Shown here: piece after piece, positions 2,619-57,714 of the stretch | How the letters are laid out: each line of letters opens with the position of its first letter | Numbering within the stretch: the first letter of the stretch is position 1 | Origin: an uncultured Gammaproteobacteria bacterium | GTDB taxonomy: Bacteria > Patescibacteriota > Microgenomatia > JALYQM01 | DNA length: 64,000 bases | Direction of reading: 5' to 3' | Assembly: GCA_964403585.1 (NCBI GenBank) | Contig: CAYOFQ010000001.1 | Coordinates: 960,826-1,024,825, forward strand | Notes under the pieces: model-generated | Database searches by the model: none | Seen by the model: only the letters and a program-made list of their open reading frames with translations | Told to the model about the DNA's origin: nothing | Translations under genes and position numbers: made by a program

Positions 2619-4678
<2,060 letters not shown>

Positions 4679-7854: not shown

Positions 7855-7866
7855 TATAGGAGGTTT

Positions 7867-10142: not shown

Positions 10143-10247
10143 GAAAATAGCATATTGCATTTGGAGGTCGAAACTATCTATCATTTTATATAGAGTATAA
10201 GTTTGAAAAGATATACATCTTCTTGAAGGGGGGTGAAACTAAACATT

Positions 10248-10853: not shown

Positions 10854-10875
10854 AAAACACGTCAATACACACAAG

Positions 10876-10906
10876 AAGACGTCCCTTCACCGGGACGTTT
10901 TTTTGT
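10876..10906 (+). terminator. Rho-independent terminator downstream of the major pilin gene
   Basis: The sequence gacgtccc ttcacc gggacgtc forms an 8 bp GC-rich stem and is followed by TTTTTTT. Confidence 0.8.
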
Positions 10907-10923
10907 GCTACCATTCCTCGTAT

Positions 10924-11847
10924 ATGCAATTTTTCTACTACATTGTTACTTTTATTCTCGGTGCGTGTGTCGGAAGTTTTATAAACAACACCGCGGAACG
11001 CTTAGCCCGCGGCGAAAGTATCAACGGCAGATCGCATTGCGAATTCTGTGACAAGACATTAACCGCCAAAGACCTCGTTCCGCTCTGGAGCTACCTTTCC
11101 TTAAAAGGTAAATGCCGTTATTGCAGTAAACCGCTCCCAAAACAATACATTATTGTAGAACTGGCAACAGCAATAATTTTTACTCTCATCTACCACTTAG
11201 TATCCAATAATGCCTACGTTGTCCAGGATTATTTAAATAACTCCATCCACTTTGTCGACTTCGGCATTATTGTTCCACTGATCTTCTTTTATATTGTAAC
11301 GACATCGCTGCTGATTCTATTTATCACCGATCTTAAATATGGCATGCTTTACGACAAAGTGGTTATTCCAACCATTCTCTTTGTCCTGGCCTATCGCATT
11401 TTCGTTATTGCTTACAATTACTTTCGACTCGCCAATTATCTCAACCAGACAAAAATTGGCCAGTATTTTCTCAAAGCCGGCTTCGCTCTGAATCACGCAC
11501 AATTTTCCTCGAACGTCTTTATCTATACACTACTGGGAAGTCTCGCCATCGCCTTCTTCTTTCTGGTTTTAATTATAGTTACCCGTGGACGCGGTATGGG
11601 CGGCGGTGATCTCAAACTGGGTTTCCTGATCGGCTTATTATCCGGCTGGCCAAACATGCTGATGTCTATTTTTCTCGGCTTCTTGACAGGCGCAATAGTG
11701 AGCTGCATACTTTTAATAGTACGAAGGAGAAAAATCGGACAAACCATCCCCTTCGGCCCCTTCCTGATACTTGGCTGTTTTGTAGTCATGTTTTACGGAA
11801 ATCAGTTATTCGGATGGTATTTAAATGACATTTTAGGACTGCGATAA
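10924..11847 (+). CDS. pilD: Prepilin peptidase PilD (A24 family)
   Basis: It has N-terminal CxxC...CxxC zinc-binding motifs (CEFCDK, CRYCSK), a polytopic membrane body and a C-terminal GGGDLKLGFLIGLL motif. The ATG at 10924 is preferred over the TTG at 10903, which lies in the terminator T-run. Confidence 0.85.
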   Translation: MQFFYYIVTFILGACVGSFINNTAERLARGESINGRSHCEFCDKTLTAKDLVPLWSYLSLKGKCRYCSKPLPKQYIIVELATAIIFTLIYHLVSNNAYVVQDYLNNSIHFVDFGIIVPLIFFYIVTTSLLILFITDLKYGMLYDKVVIPTILFVLAYRIFVIAYNYFRLANYLNQTKIGQYFLKAGFALNHAQFSSNVFIYTLLGSLAIAFFFLVLIIVTRGRGMGGGDLKLGFLIGLLSGWPNMLMSIFLGFLTGAIVSCILLIVRRRKIGQTIPFGPFLILGCFVVMFYGNQLFGWYLNDILGLR

Positions 11848-11850
11848 CGT

Positions 11851-12351
11851 ATGCAAAAAGGTTTTACTCTGATCGAACTTTTAATTGTCGTCACCGTTTT
11901 GGGAATACTTACGACTATGGCCATGGCAAATTTTGCCGGTGGCACTTCCAAAGCCCGCGATGCACAACGTAAGTCAGACCTGCGTGCCGTACGTGAAGCA
12001 CTCGAAATGTACAAACAGGACAAAGGATCGTACTACGTTCCAAGTACTACCTACCGCTCCGGAGCAACTGCCTTTCCTGCAGATGGTGCAGGAGCCACTA
12101 CCGGCAATACTCAGTTCACCAGCCTCTTGAGTAACGGCACCTATGGCTTAGTCACATTAGGATATATGCAAAAAACGCTGCAGGATCCGAAAGCTGCTAC
12201 TCCCTATCTCTATCGCTACGCGACCGGCGATGCTTCCGGCAGCGATTTTGTACTGGAGGCCTGTCTCGAAAACTCCAGTGATCCACAAAAATATCAGGCC
12301 ACGGCTATATCACCTTGCACCACAGCTAATTATCGGGTATTTAATCCATAA
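11851..12351 (+). CDS. Prepilin-type protein (pilin or pseudopilin, GspG-like N-terminus)
   Basis: The N-terminus reads MQKGFTLIELLIVVTVLGILTTMA...KARDAQRKSDLRAV. That is a class III signal followed by a GspG/PulG-like motif. Confidence 0.8.
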   Translation: MQKGFTLIELLIVVTVLGILTTMAMANFAGGTSKARDAQRKSDLRAVREALEMYKQDKGSYYVPSTTYRSGATAFPADGAGATTGNTQFTSLLSNGTYGLVTLGYMQKTLQDPKAATPYLYRYATGDASGSDFVLEACLENSSDPQKYQATAISPCTTANYRVFNP

Positions 12352-12368
12352 AAAGGGGTAGTATTTAT

Positions 12369-12929
12369 ATGAACATAACGAAAGATTTATCAAAACAAAG
12401 AGGATTTACGTTAATCGAACTCCTCGTCGTTATTTCAATTATCGGAATACTATCTGCACTGCTCTTACCCAATTTAACCAGCGCCCAGGCACGTGCCCGT
12501 GACGGCCGACGCAAGTCCGATCTGAAAGCCATCGCCACCGGACTGGAACTTTTTTATAACGATAATAATTACTACCCTGCCCGCTGGGTATCCGGAGCAA
12601 CCGCCGCCAAATTTGATTTCGCTAATGCGTTGACCGATGCAGCCGGAACCACAACCTATATCAAATCCCCGGTACCAAAGGACCCGAAAAACACAGCTAC
12701 CGGAAACTACGAATACTATTACTGCACCCAATCCGATACCGCAACCAACAACAAGAAATTTAACCTGTTTGCTAAGCTGGAGAATACCAACGATCCGGAT
12801 AAGTGTACCGCATCACCTTGCGCCAATAGCATCAATACTTCCAATGGTGTTTGTGGACGCGGTAGTGCCACCACAGCGGCTTCATCAGCAATTATCAATG
12901 CGATGACCTACACCGTTTCCGAACCGTAA
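12369..12929 (+). CDS. Prepilin-type protein (pilin, GspG-like)
   Basis: The N-terminus reads QRGFTLIELLVVISIIGILSALLLPNL...ARARDGRRKSDLKAI. Confidence 0.8.
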   Translation: MNITKDLSKQRGFTLIELLVVISIIGILSALLLPNLTSAQARARDGRRKSDLKAIATGLELFYNDNNYYPARWVSGATAAKFDFANALTDAAGTTTYIKSPVPKDPKNTATGNYEYYYCTQSDTATNNKKFNLFAKLENTNDPDKCTASPCANSINTSNGVCGRGSATTAASSAIINAMTYTVSEP

Positions 12930-12987
12930 AGGTACTTAGAAAAAAGCTTGACGCTGCTATCACAACTCCCCTACACTGTAGTAAGCG

Positions 12988-13680
12988 ATGAAAAATCAAA
13001 ACGGTTTCACTCTCATAGAACTTCTGGTCGTAGTTACCATCATGGGCATTCTTTTAACATTGGCTATTCCCGCCTATCGGAATTTTAATGAAGAACAATC
13101 GGTCAGTTTAGCGGCCAACATGGTTAAAGACGACATTCAGTTCGGAATTAACAAATCGACTTCGGGATTCAATGCCCACTGGTTTGGAGTAACTCTGAAC
13201 GCCGATACCGCAGCAGTTCCCGGTCCGTATACCGAATATAAAAACTTTGAAATTACGCCGAATAACTCATCAGGGATTGTTGTCTGTCCGCCAATTGTCA
13301 TAAGCCTTTCTACGGCCCCTTGTTCATCATCAGTACATAAGAAGGAAACGGTCAAAAAATATCCAACCGGTGTAAAACTCGACAAGATTATTTTGTATGA
13401 TATGGAAGCTAATGCTATTGACTACCCCAGTTTTATCGATGTACGATTTAATCAATCACCACAGAGCGGACAAATTATTATCAGCTCCGAAGGAACGGCA
13501 CCGGCATTACGGGCCAAGATAGCTCGAGCCGAACTTCAGTATAAAAACGGAACGTTTCAGCGAAGTCTGGTTGTTGATGGAGGAAATGTCTGTGATGATA
13601 TGCAACCGAATAAAACTGCCTGCAATAACGATTTAACCGGAGGGCCAAAACCAAGCAGAGTATTTGTAGTGGAGAAATAG
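12988..13680 (+). CDS. Prepilin-type minor pilin
   Basis: The N-terminus reads MKNQNGFTLIELLVVVTIMGILLTLAIPAY. The gene sits in the pilin array. Confidence 0.75.
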   Translation: MKNQNGFTLIELLVVVTIMGILLTLAIPAYRNFNEEQSVSLAANMVKDDIQFGINKSTSGFNAHWFGVTLNADTAAVPGPYTEYKNFEITPNNSSGIVVCPPIVISLSTAPCSSSVHKKETVKKYPTGVKLDKIILYDMEANAIDYPSFIDVRFNQSPQSGQIIISSEGTAPALRAKIARAELQYKNGTFQRSLVVDGGNVCDDMQPNKTACNNDLTGGPKPSRVFVVEK

Positions 13681-13681
13681 A

Positions 13682-14239
13682 ATGAATCAAAAATTTAGTA
13701 ATCAAACAGGTCAGTCACTAGTCGAAGTAGTTATCGCGCTGGGTATAGCGGTTATCATTGTGATCGCCTTTACCAATGCCACCATTGCTTCAGTACGCAA
13801 TTCACAATTTTCCAAAAACCAGAATCTGGCCACCAAATATGCACAGGAGACTCTGGAACTGGTCCGCGCAATTCGGGACCAGAATACGGTCGGAAGCGTC
13901 ACCGATGGAACAGCCGGTCTGAACTCCTGGGGAGACCTCTGGGGTATTAATCTAAAGAACGCCGCCTCCCCCGGTGGCGGGTATACCGGGTACTGTTTTA
14001 CACTGAATAAAACGACTCTGGTACTAACGAAGCGAACATCCTGTGCGGATACCAATGGTGCCGGGGTTAGAATTGATGAAAACCTCGATACAACAACCAA
14101 TCTTTTCTATCGAAAAATTAATATCACCGACGATGGCACCACACTTACCAAAAAACAAGTGAGTGTTAGAGTTTACTGGAGCGACAACCGTGGACAACAC
14201 AACACCGATGTAACAACCTTTCTTACGAATTGGCAATAA
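13682..14239 (+). CDS. Prepilin-type minor pilin (atypical G|QSLVE cleavage site)
   Basis: The N-terminus reads QTGQSLVEVVIALGIAVIIVIAF. It has Glu at +5 and a hydrophobic helix. The gene sits in the pilin array. Confidence 0.65.
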   Translation: MNQKFSNQTGQSLVEVVIALGIAVIIVIAFTNATIASVRNSQFSKNQNLATKYAQETLELVRAIRDQNTVGSVTDGTAGLNSWGDLWGINLKNAASPGGGYTGYCFTLNKTTLVLTKRTSCADTNGAGVRIDENLDTTTNLFYRKINITDDGTTLTKKQVSVRVYWSDNRGQHNTDVTTFLTNWQ

Positions 14240-14243
14240 ATAA

Positions 14244-15026
14244 ATGATAAAAAATAATCAGCAGGGCTTCACATTAATTGAAATACTCGTCGTCATTACC
14301 ATTATTGGCGTGCTTACGGGTATCACTGCGGATATTTTTATCCAAATCGTACGCGGTTCAAATAAGGCCAATGTCGTCACCGAAATAAAACAGAATGGTG
14401 ATAATATCCTCAACCAGCTTGAACGCACTATCCGTAATGCCGAAGAAATTACCGCTATGGGTGGTACCAATACGTTTGACTGGGCTCCATCCTCAGCGTG
14501 GACCGATGTCTCAACTATTGTTGCGCCCGATACTTGGAGCTGTTCCTTTAAGTACTGCGCAATCATCGTTAAGAACCAAGGCGCTACCGGAGGGTATACC
14601 AAAATTGAAATTCACGCCCAAACCGGCACTTCGCCGATTGTCGGAGACCAACGCTGCAGCAGTTCGCCATTTACCACCAACGACCAGGATCAAACAAAGT
14701 CACCGTACGAATGTAATGGCAATATTCGCCTCGTTACCGATACATCTACTTCTGCAGTGGATAATTTAAAAAATACAACTAATGCTGTTACAGCCACGAC
14801 TATTGGGCAGGTAATATCCAACACCGAACGCCGCAGCGGGGTCAGTGTTCGCGCCACCACCGCCGGTGATCCCTTCTTCAACATCCGATTCAATTCTTCA
14901 AGTCCACCGTTAGTTACCACGCAATTTGCATTAACACAGGGCATTAATGCATCCAGTCGTGTTGATGCCACCGCCATCGTTCCATTCACACAAACAATAT
15001 CACTACGGGTATATAACAGTGACTAA
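14244..15026 (+). CDS. Prepilin-type minor pilin
   Basis: The N-terminus reads MIKNNQQGFTLIEILVVITIIGVLTG. Confidence 0.75.
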   Translation: MIKNNQQGFTLIEILVVITIIGVLTGITADIFIQIVRGSNKANVVTEIKQNGDNILNQLERTIRNAEEITAMGGTNTFDWAPSSAWTDVSTIVAPDTWSCSFKYCAIIVKNQGATGGYTKIEIHAQTGTSPIVGDQRCSSSPFTTNDQDQTKSPYECNGNIRLVTDTSTSAVDNLKNTTNAVTATTIGQVISNTERRSGVSVRATTAGDPFFNIRFNSSSPPLVTTQFALTQGINASSRVDATAIVPFTQTISLRVYNSD

Positions 15027-15086
15027 ATATCCTCTTGATTAATTAGTGAGTGGTAATACACAATAGAAAAAGCTAGGAGAGATGAT

Positions 15087-16028
15087 ATGAAACAAATCAA
15101 AAATACTTTACAGGACCAGTCAGGCCAAATGGCTATTCTTGTTATGTTGGTGCTGGTTGTAGCACTCACTATCGGGCTGGCTATTATTGCCAGAACCACT
15201 ACCGATGTTCGTCTTTCCACTAATACCAATCAGTCTAACCAGGCCTATGCTGCAGCCGAAGCAGGTATTGAAGCCGCCCTTGGCAACAACATCACTTCGT
15301 ACGGAACTGATGTCACCATTGGAAATGCCACATTCAATGTTTCAACACCTACCCAACAGGGTGGCAGCACTACGCCGTTCGCTTTTCCCAACGACTTAAA
15401 AAAGGATGAGTCTGCTCAAGTCTGGTTGTTTGATTACAATAATTTCAAAACCAATGCCGCCAGTCCGTATTCAGGATTCTACAATAGCTGCAGCACCCCG
15501 GCCAACTGTAACCAAATAACCATCCATTGGGGTACCAATGCTGCAACCAGCGGTAAAGAGCCGGCTCTCGAAGCATCACTTATTTATAAAGAAAATAACG
15601 CCTTTGGTGTTGAGAAATATGCCTTTGACAGCCAGTATAGCGTCCGTGGTAACGGATTTGATCCGGTAACCTACGTCTCCAATCCAACAGCTATTACCAC
15701 CAACCAGGGCAGTAAAAAGTATAACTATAGCCGGACAATAACTCTTTCTAACGGTGAAACCGGTTCCGGATCATGCACCACTGCCGGACCACGTTGCTAT
15801 CTCTTACTCCGCATTAAACTGCTCTATAACGACGGACAGGATCAGGGCGTCGCTGTAGCTCCACAGTCAGGTCGCTCACTTCCGGCACAGGGTACTCAAA
15901 TCGATTCTCAGGGAAAATCCGGGGATACCGTACGTAAAGTACGCGTCTATCAATCGTACCCCACCTTACCGGGAATCTTTGACTTCGTTGTCTTCAACGG
16001 TAGTACCAACCCTTTGCAAAAAAACTAG
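15087..16028 (+). CDS. PilX-like minor pilin / pilus assembly protein
   Basis: It has an N-terminal hydrophobic helix (GQMAILVMLVLVVALTIGLAIIA). The motif QAYAAAEAGIEAAL resembles the PilX N-terminal domain signature. Confidence 0.6.
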   Translation: MKQIKNTLQDQSGQMAILVMLVLVVALTIGLAIIARTTTDVRLSTNTNQSNQAYAAAEAGIEAALGNNITSYGTDVTIGNATFNVSTPTQQGGSTTPFAFPNDLKKDESAQVWLFDYNNFKTNAASPYSGFYNSCSTPANCNQITIHWGTNAATSGKEPALEASLIYKENNAFGVEKYAFDSQYSVRGNGFDPVTYVSNPTAITTNQGSKKYNYSRTITLSNGETGSGSCTTAGPRCYLLLRIKLLYNDGQDQGVAVAPQSGRSLPAQGTQIDSQGKSGDTVRKVRVYQSYPTLPGIFDFVVFNGSTNPLQKN

Positions 16029-16037
16029 AGCAACCAC

Positions 16038-17477
16038 ATGAAGCAAAAAACAAAAACGTATCGGAGAGCAGGATTTATAATCCTCTCTCTGATAGTCGCA
16101 TCATTCTGGATTCCTAAGGCACAGGCAGATACCTTACCTAATACCACATACTCCATCGACGCCTCGGCAGAGACCGGAAATAACGGCTGGTATATTAGCG
16201 CGGTTCCCATTACGTTACAAACTACTGCCGGAACAAATCCCGTTCAGTCAATTACCTATTGGATCGACTCAGGTACCCCAACCACAGTTAATGCTTCTTC
16301 CACAACTAGTATCCTGATCGCCCAGGGAATCCATACGCTGTACTTTTACGCCAAAGATACCCTGGATAATCAGGAGGCTACCAAGTCATTTGCCTATAAG
16401 ATCGACCTAGTGGCACCGGGAAACTGGAACACGTTTAATGTTGTTAATTCGGGTAACTCTCATACGTTTACCATTACAGACAAAGTAACCGATAAAACGT
16501 CCGGGATAGACAACCTTACCGCCGAATTCCAATACAGTGTCGATGATGGTAATACTTGGGGGTACTATTCTACCTTAACGAACTGTAGTTCCACCTGGAA
16601 TAACAATGCCTGGCGAAGTGCCACGGTTTCACCAAATACGCCCGGATCCTTAAGTGTTACAGTAAACATTCCCACTACTGACTATTGCAATTCCAACTGG
16701 GCGAACACCAAATATATCCGGATTCGTATTAAAGATATGGCCGGAATCCAATCCACTAAACAATATGCACTGATGGCGCCATGGATGAAAACCAGCGGAG
16801 GTAATGTACATTCTGAGGGAATAATTGACATGACGACTGAAAACAGCACCAGCGCAACGGGAATCGTATCTACCGGAGGGAATACTGTTAATAACATGAC
16901 CTCTGCACAAGGTTGGCAAATGAGAAATTATTCTATTCCAATCATAACCTCCTCCGTGTACATGGATTATTACAATAAACTAAATTCGTCCGCTCAGAAT
17001 TTGCCTTCAACGCTACCAACCACATCAGGAGTATATAAAACTACTGATTTCGTCTTAACTGGAACAAAAATCCCGGCAGCCTTAACTACTGCGCAAAATG
17101 TTGCCCTAGTAATATTAGTTTTCGGCGATCTCTATATAGACACCAATATTTCACTCCATCCAACCAGTTCAATTATCTGGGTAGTAACCGGAGATACCGG
17201 CATTCGAAATAGCGTTACATCGGTTGATAGCAACTTCTTTACCGGAGGTGAATTTAACTCATCATACAACGGAGGATCTAACAACCAGTTAACCATAGAA
17301 GGCTCTGTAGCGGCCTTTGGCGCTATGATTTTCGATCGATCTCTTAGTGGGACCAATAACTTAAATTCCCCTGCCGAAATCATCAATTATAATCCAATTA
17401 TTTTTGCTAATCCGTTCCTGTTAAATGCCCTTAATCTCGACTCAACGGTCACCTGGAGAGAGATCATCGACTACTAG
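16038..17477 (+). CDS. Large secreted protein with N-terminal Ig-like repeats. Candidate pilus-associated adhesin.
   Basis: It has a Sec signal peptide (IILSLIVASFWIPKAQA|DT). Two repeats of an NGWY...Y.D.G.W..Y Ig-like motif (chitobiase-C-like) are followed by a beta-rich Asn/Ser/Thr-rich region. Its position between the minor pilins and pilM suggests a tip or adhesin role (inference). Confidence 0.45.
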   Translation: MKQKTKTYRRAGFIILSLIVASFWIPKAQADTLPNTTYSIDASAETGNNGWYISAVPITLQTTAGTNPVQSITYWIDSGTPTTVNASSTTSILIAQGIHTLYFYAKDTLDNQEATKSFAYKIDLVAPGNWNTFNVVNSGNSHTFTITDKVTDKTSGIDNLTAEFQYSVDDGNTWGYYSTLTNCSSTWNNNAWRSATVSPNTPGSLSVTVNIPTTDYCNSNWANTKYIRIRIKDMAGIQSTKQYALMAPWMKTSGGNVHSEGIIDMTTENSTSATGIVSTGGNTVNNMTSAQGWQMRNYSIPIITSSVYMDYYNKLNSSAQNLPSTLPTTSGVYKTTDFVLTGTKIPAALTTAQNVALVILVFGDLYIDTNISLHPTSSIIWVVTGDTGIRNSVTSVDSNFFTGGEFNSSYNGGSNNQLTIEGSVAAFGAMIFDRSLSGTNNLNSPAEIINYNPIIFANPFLLNALNLDSTVTWREIIDY

Positions 17478-17480
17478 ATC

Positions 17481-17510
17481 TTGACATGCCTTTCCACTGT
17501 CCTACATACT
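17481..17510 (+). promoter_or_regulatory. Candidate sigma70-like promoter for pilMNO
   Basis: There is a TTGACA at 17481-17486 and a CATACT at 17505-17510 with an 18 nt spacer. The pilM ATG at 17521 has no obvious SD, so the transcript could be nearly leaderless. Confidence 0.35.
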
Positions 17511-17520
17511 ATATAAAGTT

Positions 17521-18555
17521 ATGGCAAATAAAAACTTTTTCGGGCTGGATATCGGAGATTCCAGCATAAAATTAGTCTATCTTCAAAAAGATAATCAGGG
17601 CAGTAAATTGCTTGCATACGGTTTGGCACCCACTCCGGGGAACGGCATGACCTCTGAAGCAGACTTCGACAAAGAAGCTATTGTCGAAATCATCAAAAGA
17701 TTAACAAAAGAAACCAAGGTAAACACTAATCAGGTTGTTACCTCACTGCCGGAATCACAGATTTTCACCCGTATTATCGAGATGCCGCCAATGTCGGAAA
17801 AGGAACTCTCATCTGCCATCAAATTTGAATCCGAGCAGTACATTCCCCGACCACTCAATGAAGTATCTCTCCGTTGGCAGATCTTAACCAAAGGTGATAA
17901 AGAAAAAGGTCAAAAAATGGAAGTACTCATTGTCGCGGCTCCGTTGACCCTAATCGAAAAATACACTGAAATACTTGCCAAAGCGGATTTAAAACCAATC
18001 GCCATGGAAACAGATTTATTGGCACAGGCTCGATCATTGGTAGGTAATAACCCCTACTCTCCAACAACCATGGTTATTTCCATCGGTTCAACCAACACTG
18101 ACTTAAGTATTATCCGCGGCGGTATGGTAAGCTTCACGCGTTCCATTGCCTCCGGTGGTGCTACCTTAAGCCGCGCTATTGCTTCTGATCTGTCTTTGGA
18201 ATTCGAGCAGGCTGAACAATACAAAAAAACCTATGGTCTCTTGGATGATCAGCTTGAAGGCAAAGTAATGAGCGCCATCAAACCTACGTTTGAATTAATT
18301 ATCAACGAAATAAAAAAAGCGATTACCTTATATCAAACTAAAAACCCGAACGATCAGGTGAAACGGCTAGTATTGGCCGGTGGTACTGCAAAACTTCCCG
18401 GCTTGCTAATTTTCCTGGCCAACGCACTCGGAATTGAAGCACAGGTTGGAGATCCGTGGTTTAATATTAAAAAAGATCCGAATATTGAGGGTCAGTTAAC
18501 CGAAGATGCACCAATTTATTCAGTGGCAGTAGGACTTGCTCTAAAGGAGATCTAA
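17521..18555 (+). CDS. pilM: Type IV pilus assembly protein PilM (actin-like ATPase fold)
   Basis: The start reads FFGLDIGDSSIKLV. The protein is 344 aa and is followed by pilN and pilO. Confidence 0.85.
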   Translation: MANKNFFGLDIGDSSIKLVYLQKDNQGSKLLAYGLAPTPGNGMTSEADFDKEAIVEIIKRLTKETKVNTNQVVTSLPESQIFTRIIEMPPMSEKELSSAIKFESEQYIPRPLNEVSLRWQILTKGDKEKGQKMEVLIVAAPLTLIEKYTEILAKADLKPIAMETDLLAQARSLVGNNPYSPTTMVISIGSTNTDLSIIRGGMVSFTRSIASGGATLSRAIASDLSLEFEQAEQYKKTYGLLDDQLEGKVMSAIKPTFELIINEIKKAITLYQTKNPNDQVKRLVLAGGTAKLPGLLIFLANALGIEAQVGDPWFNIKKDPNIEGQLTEDAPIYSVAVGLALKEI

Positions 18556-18561
18556 ATTAGT

Positions 18562-19122
18562 ATGGCAAAAGATATTAACCTATTACCCGACGTAACGCTT
18601 ACAGAAGAACGCGAAAGTAAGTTACAAAAATTGCTTACCATTGTCAGCATGGCTATTCTGGTAGTAGGAGTAATTGCGTTAATCGCGGTTATAACCATCG
18701 ATCTTACACTTAATGACGGATATAAAAAGTTAGTCGACGAAAACGATGGTAAAAAGGCCCAGGTGCTGGGATATGCCGAAACCGAATTGTCACAACGCGC
18801 TATCAAATCAAAATTAGTCACTTCTTCAAATGTTATTAAGGCAGCCAAAGATTATAAAACTATTATTGAGAACATCCAAAGCATCGTACCGGATGGCATC
18901 ACTATTTCCGATGTGGCCATCGATAAAACAGATAAAATTGTATTAAATGGCAAAGCCAACAACTCGGAAAGCTTTTATAACTATATTAAGAACTTGCTCG
19001 ACACAGAAAAGGGCGCCAAATATTTCACCGACGTTGTATTAGGGAGCGTCAACACGACCAAGGACAGCGATCTCCAATTCAACATCACCATGACGTTAGT
19101 TAAAGCAGGGGGAAATCAATGA
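18562..19122 (+). CDS. pilN: Type IV pilus assembly protein PilN
   Basis: It has an N-terminal INLLP motif followed by a single TM helix. It follows pilM. Confidence 0.8.
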   Translation: MAKDINLLPDVTLTEERESKLQKLLTIVSMAILVVGVIALIAVITIDLTLNDGYKKLVDENDGKKAQVLGYAETELSQRAIKSKLVTSSNVIKAAKDYKTIIENIQSIVPDGITISDVAIDKTDKIVLNGKANNSESFYNYIKNLLDTEKGAKYFTDVVLGSVNTTKDSDLQFNITMTLVKAGGNQ

Positions 19123-19907
19123 AAAACGCAAATAGCAAAATGAAGATGAGCGTATACTACGTCTTGCCGGTCATCGCAATCCTAGTAGTCATCGGGATCG
19201 GATTATTATTCATTCAACCAAAGATCACCGAGATTCAGGATCTGCAGCAAAAGAAAGCCGCTGAGGAAGAGCGCAAAATCAAACTCGAAAAGAAATTGAC
19301 TGATCTTGCCCAGTTGGAAAACAACAAGACTGATTTGATTGCTCAGTTAACCGCGCTGACTATTGCCCTACCCAACCAGAAAGAAGTTCCGGCACTCATT
19401 ATCCAATTACAAAAAATCGCCCAGGAAAGTGATGTCCAGATTCAGGGTATTCAGTTAACTCCTGGAAAACTACTTAATGACACATCAATACAAGCTGCAG
19501 CCAAGACCGGACCATCCGTAAGCTTTACACTGACCTTCCGCGGCAATTACGAGGCAATTAAGACCTTCATGGGTAAAGTATACAAAGCCAAACGTCTGGT
19601 AAACATGGAATCAATCAATTTGAACACCGGTGGTGCACAATCTGAAGACGGCGGAGTGTCAGTCAGTTCAAGCATGCTGGCCTTCTACCAGCCATTCCCG
19701 GCAACACCAAAAGATGAAACTGAAGAAATTCCTGCGCTAACAGCCGAAGACAAAGAAACCTATGACGCGCTGCAAACATATAACTCATACCAGATCGATG
19801 GGACAGCCCCTGAAGCGCCTGCGGCTACAGCTACTCCGGCTCCAAGTGCCAGCGTACAGCCAACAGCATCAGTAAGCGCAACACCACGCAGTACCGGAAC
19901 TCGCTAA
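19119..19907 (+). CDS. pilO: Type IV pilus assembly protein PilO with a Pro/Ala/Thr-rich C-terminal tail
   Basis: It has a single N-terminal TM and coiled-coil, then a PilO-like domain. The start overlaps pilN. The C-terminus is APEAPAATATPAPSASVQPTASVSATP. Confidence 0.7.
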   Translation: MKNANSKMKMSVYYVLPVIAILVVIGIGLLFIQPKITEIQDLQQKKAAEEERKIKLEKKLTDLAQLENNKTDLIAQLTALTIALPNQKEVPALIIQLQKIAQESDVQIQGIQLTPGKLLNDTSIQAAAKTGPSVSFTLTFRGNYEAIKTFMGKVYKAKRLVNMESINLNTGGAQSEDGGVSVSSSMLAFYQPFPATPKDETEEIPALTAEDKETYDALQTYNSYQIDGTAPEAPAATATPAPSASVQPTASVSATPRSTGTR

Positions 19908-21183: not shown

Positions 21184-21879
21184 TCATGACTGAGGCCAAG
21201 CGTCAAGTGCTGCCTTGGCAGCCGCTTGTTCGGCCTCTTGCTTACTCCTCCCATGCCCTTTTCCATAAACCTGGGAGTCTACTTGTACTTGTACCTCAAA
21301 TTCTTTTGCATGATCCGGGCCTGAGGTGCTAACCACGGTATACTGCGGAGAAATACGGAACTTCTCCTGAACTTTTTCCTGAAACATACTCTTATAATCC
21401 CGGAAGGTTCCGCTGGCAATAATCTCCTGCAAGTGGATAAGCAACCGGTTGGTTACAAAAATACGGGCTTTCTCAAAACCGAAATTAAGATATATCACCC
21501 CAAGTAACGCCTCAAAAGTATCTGCCAATAACGAGGGGTTTTCCTTACCTCCCGATTCGGCTTCTCCCCGCGCCATATGTAAATATGTGCCTAATCCTAA
21601 CTCACGAGCCACTACCGCCAGGGAACCGGTTTTTACAATTGAAGACCGGTAGTTGGTCAACTGCCCTTCAGGTAAAGTGGGAAACGTCTGGTACAAATAG
21701 TGGGAAACGATCAAGGAAAGCACACTATCCCCTAAAAACTCCAGTCGCTCGTTACTTTCCAGCGATTTATCTTTACTCTCATTGAGAAACGAACGGTGTA
21801 TAAACGCCTTTTTTACGAGCTGCTCGTCGGGAAATTCGATTGAATCCTCTCGTAATAAAGCAATCAGCGGTTCAAACAT
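21184..21879 (-). CDS. rnc: Ribonuclease III
   Basis: It has the RNase III signature ERLEFLGDSVL and a C-terminal dsRBD. Confidence 0.9.
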   Translation of the reverse strand: MFEPLIALLREDSIEFPDEQLVKKAFIHRSFLNESKDKSLESNERLEFLGDSVLSLIVSHYLYQTFPTLPEGQLTNYRSSIVKTGSLAVVARELGLGTYLHMARGEAESGGKENPSLLADTFEALLGVIYLNFGFEKARIFVTNRLLIHLQEIIASGTFRDYKSMFQEKVQEKFRISPQYTVVSTSGPDHAKEFEVQVQVDSQVYGKGHGRSKQEAEQAAAKAALDAWPQS

Positions 21880-28552: not shown

Positions 28553-28691
28553 AAAAGAGATCTCCCGGCTACCGTATATGCATAAATGTATCATGAAAAA
28601 ACGCATAAAGCGTTAATCATAACTCAGTTATGAGCATACGGTAGACGAGAGACCTCAAGAAAATTGCTAAGACAATGCAAATAAGGGTAGG

Positions 28692-41381: not shown

Positions 41382-41387
41382 GACTAT

Positions 41388-41519
41388 ATGAGAAACAAAA
41401 AATTACTTACCTGTATAATTCTCGCCGGAGTAGTAATCTGTGGGTGCTACCTATACGTTAGAATGTCATATCCATCATCTGGATGTATAGATTATGGACA
41501 TGTTACATACTGTGAATGA
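41388..41519 (+). CDS. Possible 43 aa cysteine-rich small membrane/secreted peptide (MRNKKLLTCIILAGVVICGCYLYVRMSYPSSGCIDYGHVTYCE)
   Basis: This is an untracked small ORF directly after the Clp-like stop. It has 6 Cys and a hydrophobic N-terminus. No clear SD is present. Confidence 0.25.
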   Translation: MRNKKLLTCIILAGVVICGCYLYVRMSYPSSGCIDYGHVTYCE

Positions 41520-41688
41520 GCGATGCCATCAGCCGGTTCACCCACATAAGAAATTTGTTCAAATTTGACTATTTATATACTATAATCTTGAGCATCTCCT
41601 CGAGGTAGTTTTGGAGTCGTTCCGAAATACTACGTACAGGAGTTGTTCTTTAACACACCGTATAATTATCTATCTCCCCTCTATAGAG

Positions 41689-41732
41689 CGGTGAAATGAG
41701 CTGATGAAATAGTCGGTTGATTTCACCGTTTT
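41689..41732 (+). terminator. Hairpin plus T4 in the 5' leader of the second GC-rich gene. Candidate attenuator or terminator.
   Basis: The sequence cggtgaaat...atttcaccg forms a 9 bp stem with a loop of about 22 nt, followed by TTTT. It lies about 100 nt upstream of the GTG start. Confidence 0.4.
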
Positions 41733-41826
41733 AGAAAGGGGGTGGTAGGATTCCGAACAACAAAACCAGGAATAATCCCTAAGATGACGTTGGACCAGTG
41801 TGGTTCAACTCAACAAGGAGAAATCT

Positions 41827-42343: not shown

Positions 42344-42384
42344 TCACGCGCCGTGTGGCGAAACCCGTTTCATACGGCGCGTGA
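42344..42384. repeat. GC-rich perfect 11 bp inverted repeat (tcacgcgccgt ... acggcgcgtga) at the 3' boundary of the GC island
   Basis: The repeat was read directly. No T-run follows it. Confidence 0.5.
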
Positions 42385-47034: not shown

Positions 47035-47787
47035 TTACGTCAAATATTCCAGTGCCAGATCCAAATCTTCAGCCAGTTCGGCCTCGATTTTCATTTTGTA
47101 CCGTGTCACCGGATGATCGAATTCTATCGCCGCCGCATGCAGAAACTGCCGCTGGCACCACCGCGCATCAAAACGATACAACTTTTTACCGGTATATACC
47201 TCATCTCCAACGATCGGATGATGAATATATTTTAGATGCACACGAATCTGATGCGTACGCCCTGTTTTTGGGTAGAGCGTCAAAAGACAGTACTCTGTTG
47301 CCTCACTTTCATAAAAAACCTTTTCCTTTTTAGTCATCGAACCAAGCACCGCTTCGATCTTATCAAACGGCAACCGGAGTTTTTTATCTACTCTAAACTC
47401 CGTTTCAGATTCTCTTCCTCCGTCAAATACACCAAACTTCTCCCGGTTCATCGGATTACGCGCAATCGGGGCACGGATAATACCCTTTTCCTCTTCAATA
47501 TCTCCATGCACAAGCGCCATGTAGGTCTTATGTACTTCCCGACTCTTAAACTTGGATTGCATCGCTTCAAGAACTTCCTGCGACTTAGCGATCAATAAGA
47601 CACCGGAAGTATCCTTATCCAAACGGTGAATAATCCCCGCCCGCTCCAATGGAATACCAATCTGCTCGGTAATCACCTCAGCCACAGTGATATCTTTATC
47701 CGACTCCGAAGGAGCCACAGACATCCCCGCCGGCTTATTTACTGCGATTAAATAGTCGTCTTCAAAGAGAATTGGTAACGTAGTCAT
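47035..47787 (-). CDS. RluA-family pseudouridine synthase
   Basis: The catalytic motif HRLDKDTSG is present. The preferred start is MTTLPILF at 47787. Confidence 0.8.
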   Translation of the reverse strand: MTTLPILFEDDYLIAVNKPAGMSVAPSESDKDITVAEVITEQIGIPLERAGIIHRLDKDTSGVLLIAKSQEVLEAMQSKFKSREVHKTYMALVHGDIEEEKGIIRAPIARNPMNREKFGVFDGGRESETEFRVDKKLRLPFDKIEAVLGSMTKKEKVFYESEATEYCLLTLYPKTGRTHQIRVHLKYIHHPIVGDEVYTGKKLYRFDARWCQRQFLHAAAIEFDHPVTRYKMKIEAELAEDLDLALEYLT

Positions 47788-47861
47788 AAAGGCATTATAA
47801 CAGAAGTGAGTTCGAGCTTTTTGCGATGCGAGGACTTCCGCCTTATACAAGTTGGTGCAAA

Positions 47862-48019
47862 GTTCTTAAATTTGTTCAGCGAGGCGACGAAGTCGTCCGC
47901 TGGAGGTCGCCGAACACGCTAAAGCGACCGAATGAACTCATTAAGGGGAAAAATAGCAAGTGAGCAGGCAATCCCTAAGGGGTATAAACTGAGCTTCCGC
48001 AGCGAACAAATTTAAGAAC
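47862..48019 (+). repeat. Copy A of a structured repeat family of about 158 nt (possible ncRNA or MITE-like element)
   Basis: A perfect 16 bp terminal inverted repeat (gttcttaaatttgttc / gaacaaatttaagaac) flanks the conserved blocks AGCGAGG, CGTCCGCTGG and GAGCTTCCGCAGC. Copy B at 56681-56837 shares these blocks. Confidence 0.5.
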
Positions 48020-48033
48020 AAGCAAGCGATTAT

Positions 48034-48423
48034 TTATCCCTGTTTCCCCGTATTCAAAAACGTATGCACCTCATGAAGAACCTGATCCGGAGTCATCGCC
48101 GATTTAATCAAATACCCTGAAGCCCCATACTCAAAACCCTCTTTAACAATATTATCCTGCCCCAGATTTGTTAACATAACCACCGGACCATTCTTGGATA
48201 ACATATCCTTTTCCTTAAGCGTCTTTAATATCTGAAGACCATCCATCTTCGGCAACATAATATCCAGGAGAACCAAATTAAAACCACCCTCCATCGCCTT
48301 ATTAAACCCCTCTTCTCCATCAGCACAGGCAGTTACTTCAAAACCCTCGTCAGAAAGTAACTCGTTATACATATCGCGAAGAAACTGATCATCCTCTACG
48401 AGTAAAATTTTATGACTTGCCAT
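48034..48423 (-). CDS. Single-domain (CheY-like) response regulator receiver
   Basis: It has acidic-pocket DD, a phospho-acceptor D in LVLLDIMLP and a conserved K. No output domain is present. Confidence 0.75.
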
Positions 48424-49999: not shown

Positions 50000-50095
50000 G
50001 GTGAAAGAATTATAACAGAAATTAAAGTCAAAGACAGGATGTAGTACTTTTTGCTATTTGGCCAAAAACTTGCTAAAATATGACTCATCACATTC

Positions 50096-50182
50096 GCCGG
50101 GGTGGCGGAATGGCAGACGCGTTGGTCTCAAAAACCAATGGAGGTAAACTTCGTGAGGGTTCGACTCCCTCCCCCGGCACCA
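50096..50182 (+). tRNA. tRNA-Leu (anticodon CAA) with a long variable arm, CCA encoded
   Basis: The sequence is GCCGGGGTGGCGGAATGGCAGACGCGTTGGTCTCAAAAACCAATGGAGGTAAACTTCGTGAGGGTTCGACTCCCTCCCCCGGCACCA. The anticodon loop is CTCAAAA. Confidence 0.85.
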
Positions 50183-50868
50183 TGGAACTGCAAGAAACTG
50201 ACCAATTTCCGGTAATTGAAACAGTTACCTATAAAGCCGACTCCCCAAATGGTTCCGGCACCAGCCTCGTCGACGTACTTAAACAAAAAGCACAATTCAA
50301 AGAAACAGATCCTAACAATGTCGAAATTCTATTCAAAGACGAAGATTCTGATACAGCCTTTACCGTAACTATACGCAGGAAACTGCCGCGAAAATTCAAA
50401 ATTGCACCGGCCCAACCTGGCAGCGGAATAATGTTCGATGCCGAGTATACGGATCAAAAGACGCTCTTTGCCAACACCGTATTAAGAACCACCGATGCCG
50501 AAGGTAACGTAATTAAATACCCGGGAATGCCATCGCTTACAGAGCTATTTGATGTATCGGTCAATTTCTTTACAATGCAGGGATACGAAATTAAAGCAAT
50601 CGAGGGAGCGTGGGATAAACACCCGTATAAAGTTGGTCCACACAAAAAACCGATCCCAAGTACCAATTACGACTTGTATCATAAAGCGAAAGACCAGGGT
50701 AAATCACCCAAAGAAGCAGCTTTGGAAACACCAACCGGAAAAGCAGCAGCAAGTCTGGGGTTTACCGAACCAAAAATAATTCACGACAACTTCGCGGGTG
50801 TAGGTGTGTTATTCTACAAACCTGATACACTCAACGAAGGAACAGCTATTTCCGACCACTTATCGTAA
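50182..50868 (+). CDS. Hypothetical protein (about 228 aa) immediately downstream of tRNA-Leu
   Basis: The tracked ORF starts at 50080 but overlaps the tRNA. The first ATG after the tRNA is at 50182. No family was recognized. Confidence 0.45.
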   Translation: MELQETDQFPVIETVTYKADSPNGSGTSLVDVLKQKAQFKETDPNNVEILFKDEDSDTAFTVTIRRKLPRKFKIAPAQPGSGIMFDAEYTDQKTLFANTVLRTTDAEGNVIKYPGMPSLTELFDVSVNFFTMQGYEIKAIEGAWDKHPYKVGPHKKPIPSTNYDLYHKAKDQGKSPKEAALETPTGKAAASLGFTEPKIIHDNFAGVGVLFYKPDTLNEGTAISDHLS

Positions 50869-50890
50869 TAGAGCTACAATAACCCCGAGC

Positions 50891-51760
50891 TTAATGTAGT
50901 GTATCAAGAAATTTCTTAATATAATCTTCCACACTTACCTCCGCCTTCCACCCCAGTTCTCCAAATGAACGACTTAAATCGATTGTCGCAGTCATCCGGT
51001 TGCCTTTTCGTTCCGGAAGAATTGTAATATCACCACCAAACAATTTAGCAATCTCCATAACCGTATAACTTGTTTCATTACCCAATCCATACTTGTCCCC
51101 CTGGCCTTTTTCTCCGACCAGCATTAACCCACGTACTATATCTCCAACATAGGTAAAGTTTCGTCGTTGGGTTCCAGGTGCAACAACAGTTAGAGGCTCC
51201 CCCTTCCGGCGTTTTTCTTTAAAGAGGGCAATCAAAGTGGCGTACTTACCTTCCGAAATCTCACGTGGACCAAAAACGTTATAAAAGTAAGTAATGGCGT
51301 AATGCAGTCCATACCACTCTCCATAATTCTGAACAAGCTCGGTGTTCCGGGCCTTAGTCCAGGCATAGGGGCTTTGATTGGATCCCAATCCACCATCACC
51401 AAACTTGGTGCTGGAACCTGCGTACACAATTTTTATAGTATGTTTACGACAATACTCCAGCACCGCAAACGTTCCATCAACATTCGACTCCCATACAAGC
51501 GGTAAATCTTCAAAACTTTGTTCAACACGGGAATATTCGCCCAGATGAAAAATGAGATCAGGAACAGCAGTAACCAGCGACGAAATATCTCTGGTTGAAC
51601 CTTTTATATACGTTGCTCCCGGAACATGATTGGATTCTTTACCGGTGAGATAGTTATCCAGAGAGTATACTTCGTGCCCCTCCTTCACCAGGGCTTCAAT
51701 TAAGTTAGATCCGACAAAACCTGCTCCACCGGTAACAAGTATTTTCTTTCTGTCTGTCAT
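50891..51760 (-). CDS. NAD-dependent nucleotide-sugar epimerase/dehydratase (extended SDR)
   Basis: It has a Rossmann GGAGFVGS and catalytic YAWTK (YxxxK). Confidence 0.8.
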   Translation of the reverse strand: MTDRKKILVTGGAGFVGSNLIEALVKEGHEVYSLDNYLTGKESNHVPGATYIKGSTRDISSLVTAVPDLIFHLGEYSRVEQSFEDLPLVWESNVDGTFAVLEYCRKHTIKIVYAGSSTKFGDGGLGSNQSPYAWTKARNTELVQNYGEWYGLHYAITYFYNVFGPREISEGKYATLIALFKEKRRKGEPLTVVAPGTQRRNFTYVGDIVRGLMLVGEKGQGDKYGLGNETSYTVMEIAKLFGGDITILPERKGNRMTATIDLSRSFGELGWKAEVSVEDYIKKFLDTLH

Positions 51761-56072: not shown

Positions 56073-56666
56073 ATGAAATCATATTTTTACGATTTGTTAA
56101 TGTTTGTTCTGGACATCACACAGACCTTTATTGTTGCATTCGCTTTTTTCCTGATAATTTACGGATTTGTCGTTCAACCTCATAAAGTTTCCGGACAGTC
56201 AATGATGTCTACACTGAAAGATGGTGAGCTTATCTTAACCAACAAAATAGTCTACCGCACCAAACAACCGGTACGGGGTGACGTTATTACTTTCAAGGCT
56301 CCGGTTGACCCAAAGAAAGACTATATTAAAAGGATAATCGGCCTACCGGGAGAAAAGCTGGAAATAGCCCATAACACAGTTAAAATCTATAACCAGAGAC
56401 ATCCTGACGGCTTTATACTGAAGGAAGATTATCTTGATACCACACAAATTACGGAGGCAGGTGTGTACTTTACCGAAGGCGAAGCCAAAATAATTCCTGA
56501 GGGCGAGTACATGGTCATGGGTGACAATCGGTTAAATTCATACGATTCGCGCGCCTGGGGAACATTGAAGAAAAATGCGATTATCGGCAGAGCCTGGTTC
56601 GTGTACTGGCCTTTCAGCCGCTTAGGATTTGATCCCGAACACCGCTATCCGGAAGAGATGCAATAG
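56073..56666 (+). CDS. lepB: Signal peptidase I
   Basis: It has S26 boxes (GQSMMSTL with the catalytic Ser, KRIIGLPGE, GDNRLNSYDSR). Confidence 0.85.
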   Translation: MKSYFYDLLMFVLDITQTFIVAFAFFLIIYGFVVQPHKVSGQSMMSTLKDGELILTNKIVYRTKQPVRGDVITFKAPVDPKKDYIKRIIGLPGEKLEIAHNTVKIYNQRHPDGFILKEDYLDTTQITEAGVYFTEGEAKIIPEGEYMVMGDNRLNSYDSRAWGTLKKNAIIGRAWFVYWPFSRLGFDPEHRYPEEMQ

Positions 56667-56680
56667 TAACAGCGAGGTTT

Positions 56681-56837
56681 AGAACTTTGTCTAGCGAGGA
56701 CGTCCGCTTGGTGAGCCATAGACGAGCTGTTAAAACGCGAGCGAAGGCGAACTGCAAGCTATTCGATAATACAAAAGTACGCGAGCACATAACCTCTAAG
56801 GTTGAAAGGCATGAGCTTCCGCAGCAGACAAAGTTTC
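56681..56837 (+). repeat. Copy B of the structured repeat family, between convergent lepB and parB
   Basis: It has the same block order as copy A: AGCGAGG - CGTCCGCTTGG - variable region of about 100 nt - GAGCTTCCGCAGC. Its own complementary terminal arms are gaactttgtct / agacaaagttt. Confidence 0.5.
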
Positions 56838-56850
56838 AACCGAGCGAAAT

Positions 56851-57714
56851 TTATTTCTCTTCGTACAGCTCTTCAGGATCCTGGCCGGTCAACGCCTCAT
56901 ACATTTTATCAAGAATAGGATTCGTTTCCGACATCGTACCATTGATCATAATCACTATTTTTGCCTGAACACGCGACTGGGTAATCTTAACACGCGACAT
57001 TAAGACACGACTTAGCCCTTTCTGCATTTTATCCAGGCGCGGACTTACAGTGAGATGCGATATGGACTCGGTCGGCTGTTTCTCAAACGGATTAACCTTC
57101 TTTTTCTTTTCCGATTCAAACCGGTAATTGCGAACCAATTCCTCAGTCCCGCGGACAGAAAGATTATTCCGCAAAACCACTTTGTATGCCTCTACCATTA
57201 AACGTGAGTCACCAAGCGCCGATAAAGCACGTACATGACCTTCGGAAGTCGCATTGGACAATAAACCGTCCTTTAACGCATCCGGGAGTTGCAGTAATCT
57301 GAGCGTATTGGAGATATAAGAAGGACTCTTCCCTACTTTCTGGGCAACCTCCTGATTTGTTAATCCAAACTCATTCATCAAGCGATAATATGCCTGTGCC
57401 CGCTCCAGAGGGTTAAGATCAATGCGCTGTACATTTTCGACAATCGCCATTTCCAACATTCCTTGCGGAGTGGTTTCTTTAATCACCACCGGGACTTTGG
57501 TCAAACCGGCAGCTTTGGATGCCCTCCAGCGACGTTCACCGGCAATAATTTGGTACCCCGCCGGAGTATGAGCAACAACAATCGGCTCCATAATGCCATG
57601 CTCACGAATCGAATCAATCAATTCAACCAGTGTTTCTGGGGAGATAACTCCACGGGGTTGCAAGGGGTTCGGTTGCAACAAATCAATATCAAGCACCACC
57701 ATCTGATCAGCCAT
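56851..57714 (-). CDS. parB: Chromosome partitioning protein ParB/Spo0J
   Basis: It has a ParB N-domain (GERRWRASKAAGL) and an HTH. Confidence 0.88.
   Translation of the reverse strand: MADQMVVLDIDLLQPNPLQPRGVISPETLVELIDSIREHGIMEPIVVAHTPAGYQIIAGERRWRASKAAGLTKVPVVIKETTPQGMLEMAIVENVQRIDLNPLERAQAYYRLMNEFGLTNQEVAQKVGKSPSYISNTLRLLQLPDALKDGLLSNATSEGHVRALSALGDSRLMVEAYKVVLRNNLSVRGTEELVRNYRFESEKKKKVNPFEKQPTESISHLTVSPRLDKMQKGLSRVLMSRVKITQSRVQAKIVIMINGTMSETNPILDKMYEALTGQDPEELYEEK

Follow-up and report, generated by a model that had tools for sequence, protein, structure and literature searches.

A candidate lineage-specific family of small mosaic palindromic insertion elements in gene junctions of an uncultured Patescibacteria genome

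Several families of small, non-coding palindromic repeats are known from bacterial genomes. The REP, REPIN and BIME sequences of Proteobacteria, which are associated with RAYT transposases, lie extragenically after the ends of genes and consist of short imperfect GC-rich palindromes joined into larger hairpin-forming mosaics of lineage-specific sequence; in REPINs, compensatory changes across the hairpin are common (PMC3116915). The BOX elements of Streptococcus (boxA-boxB-boxC) are modular mosaics in which the number and order of modules vary, the end modules pair to give a closed stem-loop and folding upon co-transcription is predicted, and the mechanism by which they move is unclear (PMC3049150). 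Correia (CREE), ERIC and Rickettsia palindromic elements, and bacterial MITEs (for miniature inverted-repeat transposable elements), are non-coding units of 100-250 nucleotides (nt) with a long stem made by their two ends, and they sit between housekeeping genes or are transcribed along with them. Transcripts that run through BOX, ERIC and Correia repeats form stem-loops that can be RNase targets, and RNase III or RNase E can process stem-loops of the Correia/ERIC type (PMC3049150, PMC2649163). PATEs, which are derived from IS200/IS605, have neither terminal inverted repeats nor target duplications; they carry hairpins near their ends, insert 3' of a fixed tetra- or pentanucleotide and are uniformly oriented. 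Full-text searches of the literature show no description of small interspersed palindromic repeats in Patescibacteria, also known as the candidate phyla radiation (CPR). Here we describe three related non-coding sequences, copies A, B and C, in the genome of an uncultured member of this group (assembly GCA_964403585.1, contig CAYOFQ010000001.1). Copies A and B lie in a stretch of 64 000 nt, hereafter the window (positions 960,826 to 1,024,825 of the contig), and copy C lies beyond its right end.

The best explanation of these sequences, which we hold at a probability of roughly 0.55, is that they make up a family, specific to this lineage, of palindromic insertion elements that are small, non-coding and mosaic, either non-autonomous or now immobile, and most likely of the same broad class as REPIN/BIME, BOX, ERIC, Correia and Rickettsia palindromic elements. 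The elements were surveyed in about 74 kb of the 1.57-Mb genome, comprising the window and a stretch of about 10 kb beyond its right end, and copy C was found through that extension. All element coordinates below refer to the + strand.

Copies A and B share three blocks in the same order, AGCGAGG, CGTCCGCT(T)GG and GAGCTTCCGCAGC, and the last of these extends to an exact 14-mer, TGAGCTTCCGCAGC, with exact matches in the window only at A and B; GAGCA..CTAAGG is also common to the two. A direct comparison of the two copies gave 70% identity over the 3' 63 nt (E ~3e-6). In both, the left arm of a closing stem has AGCGAGG directly at its inner end and the right arm has CCGCAGC directly at its own, a coincidence of boxes and arms that cannot be chance. 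The first-pass annotation of this DNA had proposed that A (47862-48019) and B (56681-56837) are a repeat family with ordered shared blocks, and the order of the blocks, their abutment on the arms and the 14-mer bear this out. Its suggestion that further copies be looked for was also rewarded, copy C being a third member. This copy, of about 198 nt, lies between mraY and ftsW, some 2.9-3.1 kb past the right end of the window in the same genome (6548-6745 of L137, on the same contig as L123). It has in common with A an exact 22-mer, AGCGAGGCGACGAAGTCGTCCG, which makes up the short hairpin P1, and an exact 12-mer, AAGAACAAGCAA (48014-48025 in A), and over 29 nt around P1, the 22-mer included, A and C are 93% identical. 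The remainder of copy C could not be aligned to A or B.

A common plan runs through all three copies: arm, AGCGAGG (box 1), the short hairpin P1, a variable core, TTCCGCA (box 5) and the second arm. The parts are a variable closing stem, the boxes AGCGAGG and TTCCGCA(GC), one or two bulged GC hairpins of the form GCGAGG-loop-YCCGC, and a core rich in purines and GCGA. The GCGAGG of box 1 has two possible partners, namely a local TCCGC(T), with which it forms P1 with a bulged A, and the TTCCGC of box 5, with which it would pair in the same geometry and lengthen the closing stem.

In copy A the left arm, GTTCTTAAATTTGTTC (47862-47877), is followed by box 1 and P1, AGCGAGG-CGACGAAGTCG-TCCGCT (47878-47901), of which 22 nt are identical in C, then by a 3' hairpin, ATCCC-TAA-GGGGT (47971-47983), which holds the shared CTAAGG, by the 14-mer of box 5, TGAGCTTCCGCAGC (47990-48003), whose TTCCGC can pair with the GCGAGG of box 1, and by the right arm, GAACAAATTTAAGAAC (48004-48019). 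Copy B repeats this layout with its left arm GAACTTTGTCT (56682-56692), box 1 and P1, AGCGAGG-ACG-TCCGCT (56693-56708), a 3' hairpin AACCT-CTA-AGGTT (56791-56803) again holding CTAAGG, the exact 14-mer (56812-56825) and the right arm AGACAAAGTTT (56826-56836). The DNA outside the arms is partly homologous as well. On the right, AAGCAAGCGA of A corresponds to AACCGAGCGA of B (56838-56847), with 8/10 positions of the outer-right segment of A, AAGCAAGCGATTAT (48020-48033), matching. On the left there are extra GCGAGG motifs, among them a second AGCGAGG in B (56671-56677), which is a direct repeat of box 1, and a short hairpin in A, GCGAGGACTTCCGC (47828-47841; GCG-A-GG / CC-CGC with a bulged A), of a pattern that matches the elements only. 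This hairpin belongs to a left-flank module of A (TTTGCGA...ACTTCCGCC) which is homologous to an internal module of copy C. What is the outer-left flank of A is therefore internal in C, and the copies are mosaics with their modules in different orders. In C box 5 is shortened to TTCCGCA, and 4 nt (ATTA) stand between the arm and AGCGAGG.

Each copy is closed by arms of its own. Those of A pair at all 16 of 16 positions by Watson-Crick rules and form the longest perfect long-range inverted repeat in the window, those of B give 10 Watson-Crick pairs and one G.T pair, and those of C, TTGCTCGTTTTT / AAGAACAAGCAA, pair over 12 positions with one mismatch and one wobble. The description of the arms in the first-pass annotation as perfectly complementary was therefore correct for A and slightly overstated for B, and its observation that the arms differ while pairing is kept is borne out by the ten pairs that can be compared between A and B, of which seven are unchanged, three have changed on both sides with pairing retained and none is broken. 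Short matches count for little on this scale, as a chance resemblance would require, since a shared 13-mer is expected many times in 64 kb and the 10-bp arms of B alone are at chance level: the window holds four perfect inverted repeats of at least 10 bp with a 100-180-nt loop, compared with 4.1 in shuffled sequence. Neither a shared 13-mer nor a 10-bp long-range inverted repeat is thus significant by itself in 64 kb. The 16-bp arms of A are far beyond chance.

Composition sets the copies apart in a further way. The bulged hairpin motif GCGA[AG]G-N-[CT]CCG occurs five times, always inside A, B or C and always in the + orientation of the window. GCGA is enriched about ten-fold, with 6-7 occurrences per 200 nt against 0.59 expected, and the three 200-nt windows densest in GCGA in 73.6 kb are exactly A, B and C; neither the hairpin motif nor the GCGA density was found in relatives. 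The elements are purine-rich, with a GC skew of +0.09 to +0.17 against -0.12 for the window, and all three have the same orientation within a region of uniform GC skew. For finding copies, motif density and the hairpin pattern were more useful than an nhmmer profile built from A and B, which recovered no further copy in the window or in relatives and, being insensitive, also missed C.

The insertion status of the copies was assessed against six relatives in which the region is syntenic, with identities of ParB to that of the source genome of 94% (L127, GCA_030154765.1), 90% (the P0009 contig), 79% (L129), 94% (L134), 94% (L136, GCA_964462765.1) and 96% (L138, GCA_964535655.1). Gene order is the same in all six and the elements are absent. 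The parB/lepB junction, which holds copy B, measures 184 nt in the source genome and 0-21 nt in the six relatives examined; in L138 an unrelated inserted glycosyltransferase gene lies between parB and lepB, and the gap to parB was counted against that neighbour. The junction of copy A, between the response-regulator and rluA genes, measures 246 nt in the source and 3-17 nt in the P0009 contig, L129 and L134, whereas L127 has an unrelated 164-amino-acid (aa) open reading frame (ORF) in place of copy A, and L136 and L138 were uninformative here. The mraY/ftsW junction, the site of copy C, measures 18-22 nt in L127, L134 and L138. Because these junctions are nearly empty in syntenic relatives, copies A and B are, as judged from the sequences compared, lineage-specific insertions, and each copy amounts to 180-230 nt of extra DNA in an otherwise 0-20-nt gap between housekeeping genes. 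The shared blocks lie in DNA that is missing from the relatives, which disposes of the idea that they might be the chance 3' ends of adjacent genes.

Alignment of filled with empty sites also set the limits of the insertions. The inserted segment of copy A, at 47805-48033, is 229 nt long and has the stop codon of the response-regulator gene (48034-48036) on one side and, on the other, the native -10/start region that belongs to the rluA-like gene (47785-47804). That of copy B, at 56669-56850, is 182 nt long and lies where lepB and parB converge, between their stop codons (56664-56666 and 56851-56853, respectively). Inserted DNA therefore reaches 13-57 nt outside the arms: at one insertion end the distance is 13-14 nt in A and B, and at the other it ranges over 13-57 nt in A, B and C. 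The arm-to-arm unit is accordingly smaller than the whole element, contrary to the first-pass annotation, which had the arm-to-arm units filling their gaps entirely. The true ends, as set by the empty sites of the relatives, are not inverted repeats, and when the flanks were checked for target-site duplications no direct repeat was found at the junctions of A, B or C by comparison with the empty sites. No hairpin is present at the empty sites of the relatives, so the arms arrived with the element and not from the target; insertion into a pre-existing terminator hairpin was rejected on the same ground. Each copy stands directly 3' of the stop codon of the upstream gene, when read in the direction of that gene, and in that reading ATAA precedes all three insertions, a context that includes the TAA stop which any tolerated insertion must follow.

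An assembly artefact is not at issue, since the element-bearing loci were recovered again at 100% identity in Logan assemblies of three sequencing runs (A in two, B in two and C in one). Contig ends fall 150-280 nt away from copy A and not at it, and assembly breaks were accordingly rejected as a sign of a repeat.

The age of the insertions is a separate matter. The ParB proteins of L127, L134, L136 and L138 are 94-96% identical to that of the source, and yet the four-fold degenerate sites of parB are only 25-31% identical to those of the same four relatives and are thus saturated, so that protein identity greatly understates the divergence of these relatives. Absence from the relatives therefore shows gain in this lineage and not recent gain.

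Two of the junctions hold other insertions in relatives: between response regulator and rluA in L127 (19773-20267), the 164-aa ORF, which has no Pfam domain; and between parB and lepB in L138 (10866-11960), a 364-aa Mannosyl_trans2 gene. These two junctions appear to be permissive spots for insertion. Copy A was considered as a remnant of the 164-aa ORF and this was rejected, the similarity being nil.

Compared with the systems outlined above, the family resembles REP, REPIN and BIME sequences in each of the general features listed, and short imperfect palindromes are indeed repeated here in extragenic DNA, as five GCGAGG-loop-YCCGC hairpins. A REPIN, however, has conserved REPs as its two inverted ends, with a variable spacer inside, whereas in this family variation falls on the outer arms and conservation on the boxes immediately within. 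The inverted REP doublet of REPINs was not encountered, all the short hairpins having the same orientation and the long stem being made by other, variable sequence, and a canonical REPIN was rejected for this reason; sequence similarity is nil and a RAYT gene was not found in the ~74 kb surveyed. The likeness to BOX elements lies in the modular mosaic of variable order and in paired ends predicted to fold when co-transcribed, while the sequence is unlike, the host of BOX belongs to another phylum, and BOX elements have many copies per genome where three are seen here. Size, lack of coding, a long stem from two ends and a place among housekeeping genes are shared with Correia, ERIC, Rickettsia and MITE sequences. 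Classical MITEs have conserved terminal inverted repeats and a target-site duplication (TA for Correia), in contrast to the variable, non-terminal arms of this family, at which no duplication was seen, and a classical MITE was rejected on both counts. The alternative offered by the first-pass annotation, a MITE with target-specific terminal repeats, thus came closer to the truth in reading a mobile element than in its particulars, for the arms belong to the insertion, are not terminal and lack a target-site duplication. An integron attC site was also rejected, as its core sites, R'' (RYYYAAC) and R' (GTTRRRY), are not matched by the ends of the copies, which have housekeeping genes in syntenic order as their neighbours.

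The conserved boxes, the perfect 22-mer of A and C and the pairing of the arms, kept under neutral drift, indicate that something maintains these features. This could be the element's own propagation, host selection on the stem-loop, or DNA-level correction of near-palindromes by template switching, which is a known mutational mechanism. For the mosaic insertion elements that we propose, we infer a scheme in which the element would be copied by an enzyme encoded elsewhere and acting on a folded single strand. The stem and boxes would matter to that enzyme and the sequence of the arms would not, which would explain how the arms drift and yet remain complementary. Once inserted, the element would probably be co-transcribed with the upstream gene and place a large stem-loop at the 3' end of that mRNA.

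Several observations weigh against this proposal. The family counts just three known copies, and these fall within 20 kb of a single genome; the arms lie 13-57 nt inside insertion ends that carry no target-site duplication, unlike those of classical MITEs. With the neutral sites of parB saturated, the copies may have been fixed long ago and be functional. Neither a transposase nor a reverse transcriptase gene was found within ~10 kb of any copy, or elsewhere in the window as judged by eye from ORF translations; for reverse transcriptase (RVT), the check used precomputed Pfam lists around B, C and one side of A, and inspection by eye with Pfam results for two genes on the other side of A. Wider searches brought no relatives. 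In metagenome contigs of the JGI the strict three-box pattern found nothing, and CTAAGG combined with the 14-mer gave four matches, all by chance; exact-pattern scans of viral contigs gave only chance matches or an unrelated conserved phage gene. A scan of reference genomes with AGCGAGGN{95,125}GAGCTTCCGCAGC returned at least 119 chance matches in GC-rich genomes, the pattern being too loose to be informative, and none of the matches listed has the arms or the other boxes. Copy A, queried with blastn against phage records, and copy B, queried against plasmid records, gave zero matches.

The copies might instead be a stand-alone family of structured small-RNA genes, paralogues expressed from the + strand, in which the stem and P1 are kept by RNA function and which possibly regulate the response regulator, parB and mraY, acting as antisense RNAs or at 3' ends. 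Such a reading draws on the compensatory changes in the arms, on the conserved boxes that stand out from a drifting core, on the position of A, B and C, each antisense to the gene ending beside it, and on the saturated neutral sites, which leave room for copies that are old and retained. It draws also on the non-Watson-Crick pairs, mostly G.T on the + strand (in P1 and the 3' hairpin of A and at the arm end of B), which would become A-C mismatches on the other strand and which, from very few observations, mildly favour the + strand as the folded one. The first-pass annotation had likewise taken the covariation of the arms to point to a functional RNA structure. We do not follow it, as the same pattern is documented in REPINs (PMC3116915) and could also come about by DNA-level correction of near-palindromes. 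Beyond the closing stem and P1 no internal fold is common to A, B and C, and the folding z-scores are about -4 for A, driven by the arms, and, in the case of B and C, an unremarkable -1 to -1.9. The copies have no promoter-like or terminator-like signal in common on either strand, orthologues are present in 0/6 syntenic relatives, and the difference in module order between A and C is atypical for an RNA of defined architecture. Rfam (release 15) gave only two tRNAs in the window at gathering score, and permissive searches of A, B and C gave only noise from eukaryotic snoRNA models; the absence of a match to any known RNA family agrees with the first-pass statement that neither copy matches a recognised element. 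Hammerhead, twister and other self-cleaving ribozymes, 6S RNA, Y RNA and tmRNA were rejected in the same way, with no Rfam signal. A protein-coding reading was rejected too, as neither orientation shows conservation of the small ORFs that the copies contain. A stand-alone small-RNA family is on balance unlikely, and it lacks positive support.

A specific form of the mobile-repeat idea would make the copies non-autonomous, PATE- or REP-like derivatives moved as single-stranded DNA by a transposase of the IS200/IS605 type or by a REP-associated tyrosine (Y1/HUH) transposase, inserting 3' of a short target without duplication. A single-strand mechanism of the IS200/IS605 or RAYT type fits several features, namely the lack of duplication, the lack of terminal inverted repeats at the true ends, the short bulged hairpins near one end, the shared orientation in a region of uniform GC skew and the ATAA that all three insertions follow when read as the upstream gene is read; the related genome L136, moreover, carries a Y1 transposase gene (PF01797) as part of an ordinary IS200 copy. 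The ATAA context, however, is confounded, since in such tight junctions an insertion has to follow immediately on a TAA stop, and no such enzyme was found in the ~74 kb surveyed. The hairpin motif lies toward one end only, and the left and right ends have no matching hairpins, the 3' ends not being conserved, in contrast to PATEs, which moreover need no long-range closing stem such as this family has. The ends of the IS200 copy in L136 showed no GCGAGG-type hairpin, none of the best 120 homologues of its transposase lies on the source contig, and a Y1 transposase could not be linked to the family. The G.T pairs favour folding of the + strand, whereas the HUH model predicts the gene-sense strand. 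We therefore regard this form of the idea as unlikely.

More doubtful, and put forward only as an outside chance, is that the copies represent an undescribed structured mobile or regulatory non-coding unit of CPR bacteria, in which the closing stem and the AGCGAGG/TTCCGCA boxes would be recognised rather than any terminal sequence. Such a unit might insert by an RNA-mediated or single-strand-hairpin-mediated route without transposon-like ends, or might provide antisense RNAs at the 3' ends of genes for cell division and partition (mraY and parB).

Orphan retron-like non-coding RNAs (msr-msd) are highly improbable. In that case the a1/a2 repeats would correspond to the arms, and the branching guanosine to the G in the AGC immediately after the left arm; the size of ~160 nt with terminal inverted repeats and the AGCGAGG directly after the arm in A and B, which may resemble the TTAGCGAGAGG of retron Ec86, would suit this. 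A retron RNA was rejected, since no reverse transcriptase gene was found near the copies in the searches described above, the core lacks a long msd-type hairpin, ATTA separates arm and AGCGAGG in C, and the copies lie in housekeeping gene junctions and not in a defence locus. Chance resemblance of unrelated intergenic sequences, or of pre-existing terminator hairpins sharing short motifs, is effectively refuted by the exact 22-mer of A and C (~3e-4 such matches expected in 74 kb), by the element-only hairpin motif and by the GCGA enrichment that picks out exactly A, B and C, and it also runs against the equal placement of the boxes with respect to the arms in A and B and against the hairpin-free empty sites.

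The genes around copies A and B are as the first-pass annotation had named them, with Pfam support. Copy A is directly preceded, in the direction of the gene, by the stop codon of a response-regulator gene (48034-48423, - strand, PF00072), and downstream of it lies an RluA-type pseudouridine synthase gene (47035-47787, - strand, PF00849), which keeps its own -10 box, TGTTATAAT, just 5' of the ATG, a box that is conserved in L127 and L134. Copy B lies between the convergent lepB, encoding signal peptidase I, on its left (56073-56666, + strand, PF10502) and parB on its right (56851-57714, - strand, PF02195/PF17762). ParB homologues of ~60-62% identity carry the label Candidatus Daviesbacteria. 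Extended -10-like boxes were seen in front of rluA (TGTTATAAT, 47788-47804) and ftsW (TGCTATAGT, L137 ~6746-6772), in each case 7-10 nt 5' of the ATG and immediately behind the stop codon of the preceding gene. The relatives conserve these boxes too, which suggests that such compact operons contain internal promoters that are leaderless or nearly so.

Other features of the window were noted in passing. The stretch between dnaB and lgt (50080-51760) is variable among relatives. In the window it holds a tRNA-Leu (50096-50182), a 262-aa ORF and an epimerase gene, in L136 dnaB is followed by PLD, HTH and methyltransferase genes and by the IS200-type Y1 transposase gene (14119-14556), and in L138 by two ORFs; the matching region of L127 was also compared. 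An imperfect 40-nt inverted repeat (28557-28656; 75% complementary, 20-nt loop), unrelated in sequence to the A/B/C family, takes up most of the 139-nt gap after a PBP1a-like gene. The intergenic region after a ClpB-like gene is unusually long, at 418 nt (41382-41799), and contains a 29-nt imperfect inverted repeat (CCCCTCTATAGAGCGGTGAAATGAGCTGA / ...; 41676-41741). Between convergent genes at 42344-42384 there is a GC-rich 14-bp hairpin (TCACGCGCCGTGTG...CATACGGCGCGTGA) with no T-run after it; if this is a terminator, the terminators of this organism may lack a U-tract. By eye, 6061-19907 is a large type IV pilus/pseudopilin cluster with PilB- and PilT-like ATPases, PilC, a prepilin peptidase, several pseudopilins and PilM, and the gene at 21184-21879 was identified from its translation as that of RNase III. 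At the left end a gyrA-like ORF of more than 870 aa (1-2618, - strand) runs off the window beside gyrB (2619-4586), and this accounts for the seeming absence of genes from that part of the ORF list.

CPR/Patescibacteria genomes are very small and tightly packed, and the family described here, known so far from this one uncultured genome, is best read as a new example in this group of the small palindromic repeats known in other bacteria. It offers a clean case of non-coding DNA placed in 0-20-nt junctions of essential operons (the dcw cluster, parB and lepB) for which the empty sites are available. For those who scan genomes it carries a caution, in that compensatory changes in a closing stem do not suffice to diagnose a functional RNA, since mobile repeats that form hairpins display them as well. 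The copies may serve as a strain marker, and they provide a possible handle on how such genomes tolerate or use inserted stem-loops, whether at mRNA 3' ends, in RNase III processing or in the uncoupling of adjacent genes.

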